This document shows positions 1 to 6,020 of a stretch of DNA of 6,185 nt, piece by piece. Location: the IMG/VR virus record IMGVR_UViG_648276662_000013; one strand, given 5' to 3'. The notes beneath the pieces were generated by a model. The model saw only the letters and a list, made by a program, of their open reading frames with translations. It had not been told where the DNA came from and made no database searches. How positions within the stretch are numbered: position 1 is the stretch's first letter; each line of letters starts with the position of its first letter. The position numbers and the translations under genes are program-made. Source of the stretch: a virus. Taxonomy: Duplodnaviria > Heunggongvirae > Uroviricota > Caudoviricetes.

Positions 1-1194
1 GAGCAGATGCGTAATCTTATTACAGCATTCCCAGAAGAGTTTGAGGAAGTCCGTAAAGGGATGAGTTATGTCGATGATGCTCAAAGGGATGATTATGGCA
101 ATCTGGCGCTCAAAGCACAGGTAGCCTCATCGCTTGGTCAGGGCGCATTTGGCAGGTTCATGATGGATAATGAGCAGGAGATGCGTCGTTTAGGTATCCC
201 TCCAGAAACTATTGCGGAAATGCAGGTTAATGACCCGCAGGGCTTCCAGCATTTCGCAGGTAATCTGGCGCTGTTTTCTCTCGGTCATGAGAAGTATTTC
301 GATATCAAAGATCAAATGGAAGGTCGGGATATTGAGCGTGGCAAGTTGGCAGAGACAATCCGCAGCAATCAGGCTGGCGAAGCACTTCAGGCGAGAGGGC
401 AGGATATTAGCCGAGCAAATGCGTTAACGTCAGCATATGCACCAACAGCAGCAATGCAGAATTACAATCAGTACGCGCAAATGTTAAAGGCGGATCCAGA
501 GGGGGCGGCGGCATTTGCGGCAGCGGCTGGAATTAATACAAACGCCAAAAAATTAATGAGTGTTAGAGAAAACGATGATGGCACTGTCACAAAATACTAC
601 ACAGACGGAAGTGAAGAGCAGGGAAAACTAAACCAGCCAATATCTGGAGATGGGTTTCGTCCAATAGCTTTGCCAACAGCCCAAAAGATCATGGAAAAGT
701 CGCCAGAAGGGGCTAAAAAAGCTGCTGGATTTGCATACAGGGTTAGGGATGCTCTTGATTCAATAGATACACTGAAAGACCAGCTTAGCCCACAGCGAGT
801 GGCGATCATTAATAATGCTTTGGGTAATGGGACGCTGGCTAACTTAACGCTCAGCCCAGCAGAGCAGCAATACGTTGTTAATGCTAATGACGCAATAATG
901 GCAATACTCCGTCAGGAAACAGGGGCATCTATCCTACCAGCTGAAATGTCCAAATATTATCAAATGTATTTCCCTCAGCCTGGTGATTCCACAAAAACCA
1001 TTGATACCAAGCGCCGGAAGATGGAAAACCAGTTCAATTCGCTGAAAGCTGCTTCTGGTCGAACTTATGATGCTTTGCGGGTTATTTCAGCAGTTGACAG
1101 AGGAACTGCTTCTTCGTCGCAGACATTGCCGCAATCTGAGCAGGTATCACAGCCAGCAGCCAGCAGTAACTTTTCTTCACTATGGGGTGATTAA
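1..1194 (+). CDS. 5'-partial hypothetical protein (at least 397 aa in window), hydrophilic with no TM segment and a Ser/Gln-rich C-terminal tail; candidate phage virion/internal (DNA-ejection-type) protein, product is inference only
   Basis: Open frame runs from base 1 with no in-frame stop before the first ATG at 7, so the gene probably starts upstream of the window. Stop TAA 1192-1194 overlaps the next ATG 1194-1196 (TAATG), indicating an operon with translational coupling. ORFs 212..427(+) and 597..809(-) inside it are short shadow ORFs. Confidence 0.8.
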   Translation, partial: EQMRNLITAFPEEFEEVRKGMSYVDDAQRDDYGNLALKAQVASSLGQGAFGRFMMDNEQEMRRLGIPPETIAEMQVNDPQGFQHFAGNLALFSLGHEKYFDIKDQMEGRDIERGKLAETIRSNQAGEALQARGQDISRANALTSAYAPTAAMQNYNQYAQMLKADPEGAAAFAAAAGINTNAKKLMSVRENDDGTVTKYYTDGSEEQGKLNQPISGDGFRPIALPTAQKIMEKSPEGAKKAAGFAYRVRDALDSIDTLKDQLSPQRVAIINNALGNGTLANLTLSPAEQQYVVNANDAIMAILRQETGASILPAEMSKYYQMYFPQPGDSTKTIDTKRRKMENQFNSLKAASGRTYDALRVISAVDRGTASSSQTLPQSEQVSQPAASSNFSSLWGD

Positions 1195-3299
1195 TGGCTA
1201 AAGCATGGAAAGATGTTATCGCCTCTCCACAGTATCAGGCGTTAGCACCAGAACAAAAAGCGCAGGCTCAGGAGCAATACTTCAATGAAGTCGTGGCCCC
1301 GCAAGCCGGAGAAAGTGTAGAGCAGGCTAAGCAGGCTTTTTATGCTGCCTATCCACTACCATCAACGAATGAAATAGACCGATCCCAATCAGCAACTCAA
1401 AATATTCAACATACATCATCTGATAATTCTCTTGCGTCAGGGTATGCAAAGTTAGCTACTCAGCAAAGAGAGGGGCTTGAGCGTTCAGCAGAACAGGGAG
1501 CCAGTCTTGGGGCTGCGATGCGCGATGCTATAACAGGCGAAAGCCGAATGACTCCAGAGATGGAGAGACTGCAAAATGTCGCCTCTGCCCCAGAATTGAA
1601 CTCACTAAGCATGGATGCCCTAAAGGCTGGATGGTCTCAACTTTTCGGCTCTGACGCGTCTCAGGAAAAGATTCTTCAGGGAATGGGGGCGACATTAAGG
1701 CAGGATGAGAAGGGGAATACTATCGTTTCTCTGCCATCAGGTGATTATGCCCTGAACAAGCCGGGTTTATCACCGCAAGACCTGACCTCGTTTCTTGCTA
1801 ATGCGTTGGCGTTTACACCAGCGGGCAGGGCTGGAACGGTGCTTGGTGCCATAGGAAAATCAGCAGCTACAGATTTAGCACTACAGGGAGCCACCAGCCT
1901 TGCTGGTGGAGAAGATATTGATCCGTTACAAACGGTAATTTCTGCTGGCATTGGTGGTATTGGTAAGGGGCTGGAAAATACAGCGAGTGCGGTTTCGAGG
2001 GCTGTTCGTGGTGATATGTCGCCTGAAGCAAAGGCTGCTGTCGACTTTGCATCGGAAAGAAATCTGCCGTTAATGACCAGTGACATGCTGAAAGATAAAA
2101 CCTTTATGCAGAGTCAGGCTCAGACATTAGGCGAAAGAGTTCCTTTTTTTGGAACCGGTAAGAATCGGCTGAATCAACAACAAGCACGAGAAAATTTAGT
2201 CAGAACATTTAGCGATGGTCTGGGTGGCATTTCTGATAAACAGCTTTATGAATCTGCGACTAAAGGGCAACAAAAATTCATTGAGGCAGCAGGAAAGCGA
2301 TATAACCGCATAATTGACGCTATGGGGGATACCCCTGTCGATCTCTCAAACACGGTAAAAGCTATCGACAATCAGATTGCCGTGTTAAGCCGCCCGGGCA
2401 AATCTCAGGATAGAGCCGCGGTAAAAGTCTTGCAGCAATTTAAAGACGATATCACCAGCGGACCAAATGACCTGCGTCTGGCGAGGGAAAACAGAACCGA
2501 TCTTCGAAAGCGATTTATGGCGTCATCTGACACTGTTGATAAAGATACGCTCCAGAAAGCCAGCGATATTATCTACAAGGCATATACGGCGGATATGAAA
2601 AAAGCCGTAGCCAAAAATCTTGGAGCAGACGAAGCCATTAATATGGCAAGGGTTGATCGCTCATGGTCTAAATTCAATGACATGATGGGAAGAACGCGCG
2701 TTCAAAAGGCAATAGCCAGCGGCAAGGCCACGCCTGAGGATGTAACAAAACTCGTTTTTAGCCAAAGCCCATCAGAACGTTCTCAGCTTTACAGGCTTCT
2801 GGATGACAATGGTAGGCAAAACGCACGAGCAGCCATAGTTCAGAATGCTGTAGATAAGGCGACTGATCCGTCTGGAAATATCAGTGTTGAGAAGTTTATT
2901 AATGCGTTACACCGGAACAGGAAGCAATCAGCAACTTTCTTTAAAGGCGTACATGGAAAGGAACTGGACGGCGTTATTAAATACCTCAACGATACAAGAC
3001 ACGCGGCAAAAGCGAACGTTCAAAACTTAAATGGTCAGCAGCTTTATGGATTGTTAGTTGGTGGTGGCATCATAAACGCAGCAGTATTAGCGGGGATGCT
3101 AAAAACGGCTGCGTTTGTTGTTCCTGCTGCTGGTGCCGTAGGCGGAGCAGCGAAGGCATACGAAAGCCCTGTTATACGAAATGCCTTGTTACGTCTGGCA
3201 AATACGCCAAAAGGTAGCACAGCATATGACAGAGCGATCAGTACGGTCACACAATCGCTCACCAGAGTCGCACAGGCATCACAAAAAGAATCTCAATAA
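1194..3299 (+). CDS. 701-aa hypothetical protein: Ala/Gln-rich N-terminus, Gly/Ala-rich middle, C-terminal ~37-residue hydrophobic helical hairpin; candidate membrane-inserting virion/ejection-type protein (function not established)
   Basis: 2.1 kb ORF whose ATG overlaps the upstream stop, with a G-rich SD-like GGGGTG at 1184-1189. Hairpin LYGLLVGGGIINAAVLAGML-KT-AAFVVPAAGAVGGAA is residues 617-653, about nt 3042-3152. Stop TAA 3297-3299 is followed by a hairpin + T-run. Antisense ORFs 1745..2086, 1867..2052 and 3044..3262 are shadows. Confidence 0.85.
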   Translation: MAKAWKDVIASPQYQALAPEQKAQAQEQYFNEVVAPQAGESVEQAKQAFYAAYPLPSTNEIDRSQSATQNIQHTSSDNSLASGYAKLATQQREGLERSAEQGASLGAAMRDAITGESRMTPEMERLQNVASAPELNSLSMDALKAGWSQLFGSDASQEKILQGMGATLRQDEKGNTIVSLPSGDYALNKPGLSPQDLTSFLANALAFTPAGRAGTVLGAIGKSAATDLALQGATSLAGGEDIDPLQTVISAGIGGIGKGLENTASAVSRAVRGDMSPEAKAAVDFASERNLPLMTSDMLKDKTFMQSQAQTLGERVPFFGTGKNRLNQQQARENLVRTFSDGLGGISDKQLYESATKGQQKFIEAAGKRYNRIIDAMGDTPVDLSNTVKAIDNQIAVLSRPGKSQDRAAVKVLQQFKDDITSGPNDLRLARENRTDLRKRFMASSDTVDKDTLQKASDIIYKAYTADMKKAVAKNLGADEAINMARVDRSWSKFNDMMGRTRVQKAIASGKATPEDVTKLVFSQSPSERSQLYRLLDDNGRQNARAAIVQNAVDKATDPSGNISVEKFINALHRNRKQSATFFKGVHGKELDGVIKYLNDTRHAAKANVQNLNGQQLYGLLVGGGIINAAVLAGMLKTAAFVVPAAGAVGGAAKAYESPVIRNALLRLANTPKGSTAYDRAISTVTQSLTRVAQASQKESQ

Positions 3300-3853: not shown

Positions 3854-3877
3854 AATTTCGTGACCAGTACGCGCGCG
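3854..3877. repeat. Copy of a ~24-bp motif AATTTCGTGACCAGTACGCGCGCG (alternating purine-pyrimidine CG core)
   Basis: Near-identical to copies at 4141-4163 and 5772-5796. Lies in non-coding DNA. Confidence 0.7.
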
Positions 3878-3914: not shown

Positions 3915-3930
3915 GACCAGTACGCACACG
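3915..3930. repeat. Partial copy of the (CG)n-core motif: GACCAGTACGCACACG
   Basis: Core GACCAGTACGC identical to the 3863-3873 part of the full copy; about 52 bp downstream of it, same orientation. Confidence 0.5.
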
Positions 3931-4140: not shown

Positions 4141-4163
4141 ATTTTGCGACAAGTACGCGCGCG
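4141..4163. repeat. Copy of the ~24-bp motif: ATTTTGCGACAAGTACGCGCGCG
   Basis: AAGTACGCGCGCG core plus TTT-GCGAC 5' part, same orientation as other copies. Lies about 30 bp beyond the 3' end of the minus-strand 73-aa gene. Confidence 0.7.
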
Positions 4164-4191: not shown

Positions 4192-4413
4192 TCATTTTGT
4201 GACCAATGCGATAAGTAGCGGGATAAGAATTGATAAAATCAACAGGACGATGATCCACTTTTGATTTTCACTGGCCTTATCTCTATTTTCATCAATCTTA
4301 TCAATAATTCGACGCTCCAAGCCGTGCATATCACCGCGAATGGCAATCATCTCATTGCGAACATCCGAGAAGTGGTTGGCTTGATGTTCAATGTGTGGCG
4401 TTCTGCCTTTCAT
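4192..4413 (-). CDS. 73-aa tail-anchored membrane protein (charged N-terminal ~50 residues, single C-terminal TM WIIVLLILSILIPLLIALV); XhlA-like by recall, or possibly a small holin/toxin-like membrane effector
   Basis: Strong SD GGTGAGGA (complement of about 4422-4429) 6-7 nt upstream of ATG (complement of 4411-4413). Lies 79 bp downstream of, and co-oriented with, the RHH gene. Coiled-coil N-terminus, conserved Trp before a single C-terminal TM resembles the XhlA family (Pfam PF10779) from memory; not verified. Confidence 0.7.
   Translation of the reverse strand: MKGRTPHIEHQANHFSDVRNEMIAIRGDMHGLERRIIDKIDENRDKASENQKWIIVLLILSILIPLLIALVTK
4194..4210. repeat. Degenerate copy of the motif 5' half: ATTTTGTGACCAATGCG
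   Basis: TTTTGTGACCA matches the 5' half of the full motif. About 53 bp downstream of the 4141 copy, mirroring the ~52-bp spacing of the 3854/3915 pair. Overlaps the stop codon of the 73-aa gene. Confidence 0.35.
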
Positions 4414-4492
4414 GCCTGATCCTCACCTATCGTCACCACCTGCTGGTGTATAAAGGTATTGGCCCAAGCAGCTTTCCAATGGGCACTCATGT

Positions 4493-4948
4493 TTATACGC
4501 TGACCTTACAATCAATCACCGCTTTTAACTTTTCAGCATTGCTTCCCTGACGCTTCCACGCGCTGTAAATATCTTTATCCCACGCTTTACCAGCTTTTGT
4601 TTGATAGCCTGCTTCATTGATCCGTTCAGCTATCACACGCCCATTATCAAATCCCTGTTGGATGGTATCGGCAATGATCTTTATAACTGCCGTTTCGTTA
4701 TATGGCTTTGGTGGGATGTTCGGCTTTCCGGCAATAAGCGACGCAGCGGCTTTTTCCATGCGCTCCACCAGCCCAAGCATTCGTGAATCAATAGACTTTT
4801 CCGGCTGTCCCAGCTTCATGCGAATCGCATCAACAAGCCAGGAGGTTTTATCCCCTCCAGAAGCGAGAACAGACCGATTAAACTCATCCTGCAATTCAGA
4901 TGGGATGCGGAACGCGACCAGATTAGATTTGCTCATTGCAAAGACCAT
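4493..4948 (-). CDS. Ribbon-helix-helix (CopG/Arc/MetJ-type) DNA-binding protein with an uncharacterised ~100-aa C-terminal domain; candidate repressor/regulator of the divergent control region
   Basis: N-terminal NLVAFRIPSELQDEFNRSVLASGGDKTSWLVDAIRMKL fits the RHH pattern (beta-strand with alternating hydrophobics, helix A, G-x-T/S turn, helix B). Neither ATG (complement of 4946-4948 or 4934-4936) has a clear SD, so the start is uncertain and could be leaderless. Opposite-strand ORFs 4601..4786 and 4617..5021 are Ser/Cys-rich shadows. Confidence 0.75.
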   Translation of the reverse strand: MVFAMSKSNLVAFRIPSELQDEFNRSVLASGGDKTSWLVDAIRMKLGQPEKSIDSRMLGLVERMEKAAASLIAGKPNIPPKPYNETAVIKIIADTIQQGFDNGRVIAERINEAGYQTKAGKAWDKDIYSAWKRQGSNAEKLKAVIDCKVSV

Positions 4949-4963
4949 ATCAGTGAGTAATAT

Positions 4964-4998
4964 CCATACAGTATACCACTGTATAACACTGTTATACG
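4964..4998. promoter_or_regulatory. Operator-like decamer repeats/palindrome in the divergent promoter region
   Basis: ATACAGT-ATACC-ACTGTAT inverted repeat (4966-4984) plus tandem related decamers CACTGTATAA / CACTGTTATAC (4977-4997), immediately upstream (minus strand) of the RHH gene start. Confidence 0.5.
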
Positions 4999-5050
4999 CT
5001 CAAATATCAGCCAGAAAATAACGGGCCAATCACAAATCTATCGCTGTGTT

Positions 5051-5101
5051 GTTGGTTCAGAGCTGGGCTGTGTTGGTTCAAAATGAGTTGATGTTGGTTC
5101 A
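5051..5101. repeat. Three direct copies of 9-mer GTTGGTTCA at exact 21-bp phasing (iteron-like)
   Basis: Copies at 5051-5059, 5072-5080 and 5093-5101, each preceded by TGTT/GTGTT. The 21-bp spacing is two helical turns. Confidence 0.75.
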
Positions 5102-5144
5102 ATATTTTAGAAAAAACACAATAAAAACAACGCTCTTTACAAAT

Positions 5145-5171
5145 TGAACCAACTGAACCAACTGAACCAAC
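5145..5171. repeat. Three head-to-tail tandem copies of TGAACCAAC, the reverse complement of the 5051-5101 iteron
   Basis: TGAACCAAC x3 at 5145-5153, 5154-5162 and 5163-5171. Separated from the direct copies by a 43-bp AT-rich spacer (5102-5144). Overlaps the -35 region of the rightward gene. Confidence 0.75.
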
Positions 5172-5188
5172 ACCTTTTTGCTTATCTA

Positions 5189-5202
5189 TATAATCTGAGA
5201 GG
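5189..5202 (+). promoter_or_regulatory. Candidate -10 hexamer (TATAAT 5189-5194) and SD (GAGAGG 5197-5202) for the rightward gene
   Basis: Consensus TATAAT, but no good -35 at 17-bp spacing (that position is iteron sequence), suggesting factor dependence. SD is 5 nt before ATG 5208. Assignment is tentative because -10 and SD are almost contiguous. Confidence 0.4.
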
Positions 5203-5207
5203 CAGAA

Positions 5208-5495
5208 ATGATAAGGGACAGGAAAGCTGAAGAGCTGGAGTCAAAAGGGCTATACCGGAGAGCTGCCGCACGATGGGCAGAAGTCATGATGCTGGCAGAT
5301 GGCGATAAAGAACGTGAACATGCAGCAAAAAGACGCTCTGAATGTATCCGTAAGGCGGCACGCCCACCAGCAACTACAGACAGATTCGGAGATTTAAGAC
5401 AGGCAGTTAAGCGGACTCATTCGGCTCTTGGTATGGATGAGGAAGCGAGAGGGTACTTCAGGCGTTATCGCGATAAAGATTGCCAGAGACAGTAA
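5208..5495 (+). CDS. 95-aa basic, helix-rich small regulator; PerC/Pch-family-like transcriptional activator (by recall, unverified)
   Basis: ATG with good SD. N-terminal KAEELESKGLYRRAAARWAEVM resembles, from memory, the conserved core of PerC-family activators (Pfam PF06069). Divergently arranged from the RHH gene across a repeat-rich control region. Confidence 0.7.
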   Translation: MIRDRKAEELESKGLYRRAAARWAEVMMLADGDKEREHAAKRRSECIRKAARPPATTDRFGDLRQAVKRTHSALGMDEEARGYFRRYRDKDCQRQ

Positions 5496-5613
5496 TGCTC
5501 TCTCTCTGTTTTGGCAAATTCCCCCTCACTTTGAAGGGATCGGAGCTATAAAAATGGTGTTATCCGGCTTCCTCAAATTGAGGTTTCCGAAAAAATCAAT
5601 GGGTTAGGTCATC

Positions 5614-5627
5614 GTGCAAATTTGCAC
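5614..5627. promoter_or_regulatory. Perfect 14-bp palindrome GTGCAAATTTGCAC (candidate operator)
   Basis: Exact dyad symmetry in non-coding DNA. Followed 8 nt later by hairpin GCCAACG-CAATTTCT-CGTTGGC (5635-5656). Confidence 0.4.
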
Positions 5628-5771
5628 TCTGCCAGCCAACGCAATTTCTCGTTGGCGAAAATATCAGGTATTTACTGAACGAACGGTCTACCAGTCTATT
5701 CAGTTACCAGTTGCACATGGCTGTTTCATGTGAGAACGGAGGTTTTTTCGGACATCACTATTGGTTACAGC

Positions 5772-5880: not shown

Positions 5881-5902
5881 GTGTACATAAGGGTGTACAT
5901 AA
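5881..5902. repeat. Tandem direct repeat GTGTACATAA-GG-GTGTACATAA
   Basis: Two exact 10-bp copies separated by GG, each containing the palindrome TGTACA, in non-coding DNA. Confidence 0.5.
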
Positions 5903-6020
5903 TCAAAAACCGCATTAGAAATAAACCAGCTACAATGCGGCATTGAAGCCAATACTCTACAAACAGATTCAGAACATTGAATAACTCGTAACGCCAATTC
6001 TTACTTTTCAGCCTTCACAA

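Follow-up and report, generated by a model that had tools for sequence, protein, structure and literature searches.

The stretch of DNA analysed here (6,185 bases; referred to below as the window) matches the E. coli MS 21-1 chromosome at 100% identity and covers the right part of a 17 kb island between yicC and dinD (locus L001, 4576-21585; the right end falls at about window position 5984). An 11 bp att core repeat (CAGATTCAGAA), found at L001 4576 and at window position 5964, marks the island ends, and GTGTACATA(A) repeats lie beside this core at both of them. At attR, two GTGTACATAA repeats (window 5881-5902) accompany the att core CAGATTCAGAA at 5964-5984, and attL, next to int (L001 4576-4770), has matching repeats and the same core. 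By annotation and Pfam matches the island encodes a tyrosine integrase (int), alpA, an AntA/B protein, an Ash-family protein and a primase-helicase; further genes are homologues of P22 gp20 and gp16, a few small genes, a gene for a protein resembling ribbon-helix-helix (RHH) regulators, and perC. The resident primase-helicase (783 aa, WP_001330359.1) has Zn-ribbon, Toprim and DUF5906 domains. The island is an integrative satellite of the Gram-negative PICI type: int, alpA and pri share one orientation, its size is within 10-20 kb, and it has specific att sites. Its gene set and size match those given for Gram-negative PICIs in PMC6092414 and PMC10111431, and perC is reported in some of these satellites.

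The features at the right end of the island are collected in Table 1. A divergent gene pair, the RHH-like gene and perC, encloses a 271 bp intergenic region that contains a short repeat close to the RHH-like gene and a larger, highly ordered repeat array close to perC.

Table 1. Features around the repeat array (window coordinates).
Feature	Position	Strand	Description	Basis
RHH-like protein gene	4493..4936	-	147 aa, from MSKSN…; last conserved gene of the satellite family; WP_024174049.1	
Proximal repeat CAGTATACC-ACTGTATAAC-ACTGTTATAC	4969..4997	.	candidate operator of the RHH-like protein	co-variation with residues 5, 6 and 8
Left iteron set	5051..5101	-	three TGAACCAAC(A), 21 bp spacing (two helical turns)	exact matches
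AT-rich spacer	5102..5144	.	43 bp, 21% GC; presumed melting region, by analogy	composition
Right iteron set	5145..5171	+	three head-to-tail TGAACCAAC, 9 bp spacing	exact matches
T-rich/TATA-rich flank ACCTTTTTGCTTATCTATATAAT	5172..5194	+	TATAAT at 5189-5194; candidate perC -10 or part of the origin module	
perC-family gene	5208..5495	+	95 aa; cargo downstream of the array	Pfam PF06069, E 2.5e-33

The array consists of six exact copies of GTTGGTTCA. Three are on the + strand (5051-5059, 5072-5080 and 5093-5101), with a start-to-start distance of 21 bp, and three are on the - strand, reading as TGAACCAAC on the + strand (5145-5153, 5154-5162 and 5163-5171), where they form contiguous tandem units of 9 bp. 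These positions are exactly those given in an earlier note on this DNA, and the AT-rich spacer of 43 bp that it described between the two sets was also confirmed; the spacer is the regional GC minimum and carries a conserved core, AAAACAA-N4-CTTTACAAAT, at 5124-5144. The placement directly upstream of a PerC-like gene is likewise correct, since only 36 bp separate the end of the array from the start codon of perC (ATG at 5208) and the Pfam PerC match is full-length. No further exact copy of GTTGGTTCA occurs in the window or in the whole 17 kb island. The expected number of exact 9-mer copies on both strands of 6,185 bases is about 0.05 by our own arithmetic, and in 200 shuffles that preserved dinucleotide composition the observed number of matches at up to one mismatch was never attained, confirming that the six-repeat array is real and highly non-random. 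In 14 arrays situated next to RHH-like genes, from eight genera, the iterons and their spacing are invariant whereas the DNA between the iterons varies freely; the core AAAACAA-N4-CTTTACAAAT is invariant across the same 14 arrays. Inspection of the spacer by eye gave no convincing match to IHF- or DnaA-box-like motifs, an Rfam scan of the window gave no match, and a literature search with the repeat sequence itself returned only chance primer matches.

About 170 related loci were compared overall. Forty-eight of the loci were anchored on the RHH-like protein and so were sampled independently of the repeat, and viral contigs scanned for a tandem pair of copies gave at least 120 loci, mostly satellites of the same family. 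In many of the viral-contig loci the array comes directly after a primase-helicase gene, and most viral-contig arrays adjoin the primase gene with no RHH gene nearby. Across the ~170 loci, TGAACCAAC tracks the extreme C-terminal tail (…QRKSPRIxGRQ…) of a TOPRIM/DUF927 primase-helicase. For the pairing of tails with iterons each primase match was extended to its stop codon. For each of the nine primases of the RHH-anchored set that end in QRKSPR[IV]xGRQ, a TGAACCAAC array begins 23-82 nt past the stop codon (9/9, counted over loci that are not phylogenetically independent), and in dozens of loci a tandem TGAACCAAC triplet lies about 25 nt past the stop of a DUF927-type primase gene. The cognate tail reads …GYQRKSPRIxGRQINVYVL…, an example of a DUF927-type primase being WP_075362680.1 (NZ_CP148430.1).

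At least six tail types other than QRKSPRI were found, each with its own iteron in the same layout. Tails of the RKTPRI and TRKTLR types go with TGAACCGAC iterons, ESGRVDGKTISINGSQQRF with TGGGATAAC, YKKRTITVDG with AGTGTGTCA, DRFTxGVRTNLELNE with ATGAACA, and YQGRVREDGRQ with GAGACAACA, while the DUF5906 type (L001, L023) goes with CTGTACCA iterons. Near-identical C-terminal domains with other tails (L049 at 79%, L015 at 80%) have other iterons, and the iteron is the same in less similar domains that end in a common tail (L026, L032); since domains about 80% identical diverge in iteron and distant same-tail domains agree, the tail itself is indicated as the specificity determinant. A sequence comparison of the DUF927 C-terminal region with the PDB returned no relative, and the origin-binding role of the tail is a putative one, drawn from the co-variation. 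The last ~25 residues of the primase-helicase look like a swappable origin-recognition code, with at least seven tail/iteron pairs, one comparison of which comes near to a single-residue, single-base difference (RKSPRI with TGAACCAAC versus RKTPRI with TGAACCGAC).

One layout 3′ of the primase gene is common to all iteron types. It starts with two or three tandem iterons, continues through about 50 bp of AT-rich DNA to spaced inverted iterons, and usually ends with a mirror-image second module whose terminal tandem iterons are followed by a T-rich/TATA-rich flank and the next gene. By its structure, the window array is the second module of this layout. Three elements, namely the core AAAACAA-N4-CTTTACAAAT, the tandem triplet and ACACCTTTT, are common to it and to the primase-proximal origins of relatives. 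Both TGAACCAAC copies are present in all five scorable cognate islands (L005, L006, L021, L028 and L030), and also in L129, L147 and L171. In L171 one array (6540-6650) follows the DUF927 primase gene at a distance of 26 nt, and the other (8436-8556) separates the RHH gene from perC. Many PICIs would have a two-module origin that can be split by kilobases of cargo, as in the ori/crr pair of P4. After the second origin module some loci have a conserved non-coding stretch (…tatatagagagaaaaa…ccctcctacattaagaaa…gtcattagcaaaactaataa), a candidate leader or small RNA; it is found 3′ of the primase in L031 and L049 and next to RHH in L016 and L024, and is absent from the window.

The primase of the window island is of another kind. 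The alignment of L001 with L129 and L171 breaks off at 12085 and resumes at 14747, and the intervening 2.66 kb of L001 stands in place of 1.93 kb in these relatives. The swapped segment encodes the primase residues beyond ~341, the helicase, the origin-binding part, CTGTACC iterons and two small ORFs. The L001 primase is 86% identical to those of L129 and L171 over residues 1-351 and unrelated afterwards; since the flanks are collinear, the replication cassette has been exchanged and the distal TGAACCAAC module left behind. The resident primase gene is flanked by CCACCTGTACCACC iterons (L001 13442-13550 and 14555-14660), and these two clusters, 1.1 kb apart with two small ORFs between them, make up another split two-module origin. 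The TGAACCAAC array lies 7.2 kb downstream of the resident primase gene, not immediately 3′ of it as in PICI and SaPI origins, and the resident DUF5906 type goes with CTGTACCA, not with TGAACCAAC. The statement in the earlier note that no initiator gene is in the window holds for the window itself; outside it, there is a primase-helicase gene 7.2 kb upstream of the array, but of the wrong specificity type.

At least 51 complete E. coli genomes have this chimeric configuration, which is found at no fewer than two integration sites. With the array as query, a single place was found in the MS 21-1 chromosome, where genomes with a DUF927 cassette typically have two, and MS 21-1 was not among the 60 matches listed for the DUF927 query. 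The single place implies that this chromosome has no cognate origin and presumably no cognate primase, so that a cognate initiator is absent from the island and apparently also from the rest of the chromosome. Among complete E. coli genomes, the QRKSPRI-type (DUF927) primase occurs in 368 of 5,426 (~7%). Decay of the array is seen in relatives with the same DUF5906 cassette: L173 and strain G5 (H213) share a 108 bp deletion that spans the third iteron, the spacer and the tandem triplet, so that four of the six iterons and the spacer are gone and perC is intact. The junction of this deletion variant, at L173 17628-17670 in islands with a non-cognate primase, reads …GTTGGTTCAAAAT joined to AATCTGAGAGG…. 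The array of L172 is intact and identical to that of MS 21-1 despite the lack of a cognate initiator, and more than 300 E. coli genomes have an intact array before perC. Persistence of an intact array with no cognate initiator could reflect a function independent of the cognate primase, or a recent swap.

The best explanation of these observations, with a probability of about 0.8, is that the array is a complete iteron-origin module of a Gram-negative PICI, read by the DUF927 tail of a primase-helicase and orphaned by a cassette swap. The resemblance to iteron replication origins pointed out in the earlier note is adopted here as the explanation, as opposed sets of three and three iterons flank a spacer of 21% GC. 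The cognate binder would be the C-terminal tail of the TOPRIM/DUF927 primase-helicase, and neither the RHH-like protein nor PerC. By analogy with the PICI, SaPI and P4 paradigms, one initiator-helicase oligomer would bind each iteron set in cognate islands, the 43 bp spacer would melt, the helicase would load itself and the N-terminal primase would prime, firing the origin. One module of such islands lies right after the primase gene, and the second is either adjacent to it or displaced to a position beside the RHH gene and cargo. In the window island, recombination has replaced the helicase/origin-binding part and the adjacent origin with a DUF5906-type cassette carrying CTGTACC iterons, and the TGAACCAAC array before perC would be the leftover second module, with no cognate initiator in the island. 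This module is most likely inactive as an origin unless the cognate primase is supplied in trans.

PICI and SaPI origins are situated just 3′ of the initiator gene, with an AT-rich region flanked on either side by iterons (PMC9371898, PMC6092414), and a pri-ori clone of EcCICFT073, a PICI of E. coli, is able to replicate (Fillol-Salom et al. 2018, PMC6092414). Opposed sets, three and three exact iterons, likewise surround the AT-rich spacer of the window array. It resides in the same type of element, with unidirectional int-alpA-pri and, in some members, perC (PMC6092414), and relatives of the window island carry a homologous module directly 3′ of pri. It differs from these Gram-negative PICI origins in its place beside cargo, 7.2 kb away from the resident primase, and in having no cognate initiator, and a second, displaced module goes unmentioned in the accessible text of PMC6092414. 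In SaPIs, the origin has 6-12 iterons just downstream of rep and a central AT-rich region with at least two opposed iterons on each side; the self-loading Rep helicase recognises these iterons through a winged-helix domain at its C-terminus, with one hexamer proposed per side (PMC9371898). Common to SaPIs and the window array are the opposed iteron sets around an AT-rich region and, here putatively, a C-terminal domain as the reader; SaPIs are unlike it in being Gram-positive, with penta- or hexanucleotide iterons and unrelated protein sequences, and PMC9371898 describes no second displaced module.

The two-module arrangement has a parallel in P4, whose bipartite origin is bound by the alpha primase-helicase. 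The N-terminal primase domain of alpha is homologous (33% identity, E 1e-40), the P4 type-1 iterons form one cluster by the alpha gene (crr) and another at a distance of 4.5 kb, where vis and sid diverge (ori), and tandem and inverted copies surround an AT-rich stretch. The bipartite arrangement is exact in the cognate relatives L171 and L129, and two separated TGAACCAAC clusters are also present in the five scorable cognate islands named above; the window island has only one TGAACCAAC cluster, and its distal cluster no longer matches the resident protein. P4 also differs in its iteron (TGTTCACC) and in helicase and origin-binding parts that lack detectable homology. In iteron plasmids, auxiliary iteron arrays such as incA of P1 titrate or handcuff the initiator. 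These are similar to the window array as extra arrays of initiator sites outside a minimal origin; unlike it, they do not have the design of opposed sets plus an AT core. A second origin module at the cargo end of an island, orphaned by a cassette swap, was not found described in the available literature.

The RHH-like protein has 355 homologues in Enterobacterales. Searches with it gave no Pfam, PDB-sequence or Foldseek match, and a tblastn search of the phage database returned nothing. Its predicted model is moderately confident overall; after an unmodelled N-terminal segment there is an α-α two-helix pattern at the N-terminus, all of low confidence, and the pattern in question is a candidate β-strand followed by the two predicted helices. 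One source names the protein 'Arc-like'. Because sequence matches in the PDB and fold matches are absent, the label RHH rests on the N-terminal pattern, the source name and the operator co-variation described next. Separately, the C-terminal domain (residues 77-145; …IAERLNEAGYQTKAGKAWDKDIYSAWKRQ…) is nearly invariant across Enterobacterales, with a pLDDT of ~90.

A short repeat lies 30-65 bp upstream of the RHH-like gene in all 48 loci. Proteins of the NLA type (SNL[VI]AFR) are accompanied by a GTATAAC/GTTATAC proximal repeat in 22 of 23 loci, and those of the LST type (SLSVTFR) by GTAAGAC proximal repeats in 19 of 19. This co-variation with residues 5, 6 and 8 makes the proximal repeat the likely operator of the RHH-like protein, and the 4969-4997 repeat of the window is likely its autoregulatory operator.

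The same comparison bears on the reading preferred in the earlier note, in which the RHH-like protein or PerC would use the array as a cooperative operator controlling the divergent pair. RHH proteins bind arrays of short direct or inverted repeats, as in the operators of Arc/Mnt and the omega heptads, and the array, with its short direct and inverted repeats, lies in the intergenic region beside an RHH-like gene and adjoins such a gene in 14 loci. Unlike those operators, however, the array repeat does not co-vary with the predicted recognition strand: the TGAACCAAC array is found with both predicted β-strand types of the protein, and it is the separate proximal repeat that changes with them. 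About 30 of the 48 RHH loci have no TGAACCAAC array, and most arrays on viral contigs are by a primase gene instead. PerC fares no better as the binder, as the gene downstream of the array differs by genus and is perC only in E. coli, with unrelated genes elsewhere. An operator for a divergent RHH/PerC switch is thus not supported and is very improbable. An active second origin, or a crr-like enhancer, of the resident DUF5906-type primase is just as hard to sustain: P4 needs two separated iteron clusters (according to its annotation) and the array retains every feature of a working module, but the resident primase type goes with CTGTACCA iterons in both loci that carry it, these have no similarity to TGAACCAAC, two clusters of its own already flank its gene as CCACCTGTACCACC iterons, and relatives with the same primase have deleted the array. 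Repeat sets around a central region also resemble P1 pac, lambda cosB and att arms, and the array is about 800 bp from attR. A partition (centromere-like) site, integrase arm-type sites or a terminase recognition (pac/cos-like) site are nonetheless the least probable of the readings considered. The repeats adjacent to the att core at both ends are GTGTACATA(A) and not GTTGGTTCA, which is absent from attL, and TGAACCAAC co-varies with the primase tail. For a pac/cos-like site the partner is wanting, as the island has no terminase gene; neither its annotation nor Pfam and PHROG scans revealed a ParA/ParB- or ParM/ParR-type pair, and the partition site suggested earlier is unsupported because the island has no ParA/ParB-like gene.

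A promoter responsive to the initiator deserves more weight, as a possible though doubtful addition: the triplet would stand in the -35 position, and the primase domain would activate or repress perC or other cargo. This idea extends the iteron-origin explanation and does not exclude it. For all iteron types a T-rich/TATA-rich flank comes after the tandem doublet or triplet and leads to the next gene, always along the direction of island transcription, and the iteron in the promoter-proximal position changes with the primase type. The ori of P4 is likewise between divergent promoters, and in the window a perfect TATAAT lies 17 nt past the last iteron, with no recognisable -35. A systematic search after terminal tandem iterons, however, found the flank to be a good -10 in just 3 of 13 cases, for which reason the promoter idea was downgraded. 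A scan of 4400-5700 for sigma-70 consensus promoters and terminators found nothing, so that the earlier claim of a triplet overlapping the -35 region is not confirmed: TATAAT is present at 5189-5194, without a complete sigma-70 promoter in this region. That hexamer would imply a transcription start at about 5201, inside the GAGAGG ribosome-binding site, and a leader of ~7 nt, and the relatives that have lost the triplet keep perC intact. The sequence thus gives weak support to the triplet as a putative -35 substitute for perC. If the promoter idea were right, perC would be uncoupled in the window island, or run in trans by the primase of another PICI.

A further suggestion, and a rather unlikely one, is that the orphan module is kept so that the island or perC responds to the QRKSPRI-type primase of another satellite. 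If so, the primase of a co-resident or co-induced PICI might fire the array as an origin, giving hitch-hiking replication; the array might instead titrate or handcuff that primase, in a form of inter-satellite competition like that of an incompatibility determinant; or that primase might switch perC, a homologue of a virulence-gene activator, on or off.

Under the iteron-origin explanation, a striking repeat array is reassigned from a regulatory switch to a replication origin module. Replication cassettes would be exchanged between islands, leaving orphan origin modules before cargo such as perC, and such modules might make satellites that share a cell incompatible or lead to cross-talk among them. 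Current models are not overturned, and the basic architecture was published in 2018.

Several other features of the island and its relatives were observed. The relative L171 (NZ_CP148430.1) is a 12,152 bp circular 'plasmid' record from E. coli Z1323CEC0013, with attP at 9349-9369; it joins the right and left island ends across a 21 bp overlap and, read from this junction, is the excised circular form of this PICI lineage. The chromosome of Z1323CEC0013 also carries the L171 element, and the record suggests that spontaneous excision or replication was captured by the assembly. Window positions 7-3299 encode homologues, full-length in each case, of gp20 and gp16, which are ejection proteins of P22 (PHROG E 1e-142 and 1e-163), an example of late-gene capture that hints at a P22/HK620-like helper. 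A megablast search of the phage database with the window gave only a 52 bp roi-like match. This stretch (5549-5600) belongs to the non-coding DNA downstream of perC and has 98% identity with a portion of the roi/antirepressor (KilA) genes of HK620, H-19B and many Stx phages; it could represent either a shared site or the scar of a recombination event. Three copies of AGTACGC(G/A)C(G/A)CG (3866-3877, 3919-3930 and 4152-4163), contained in longer repeats of 20-23 nt, are located between two small minus-strand ORFs, and similar acaagtacgcgcgcg motifs are found beside the array in Serratia (L005) and Buttiauxella (L014).
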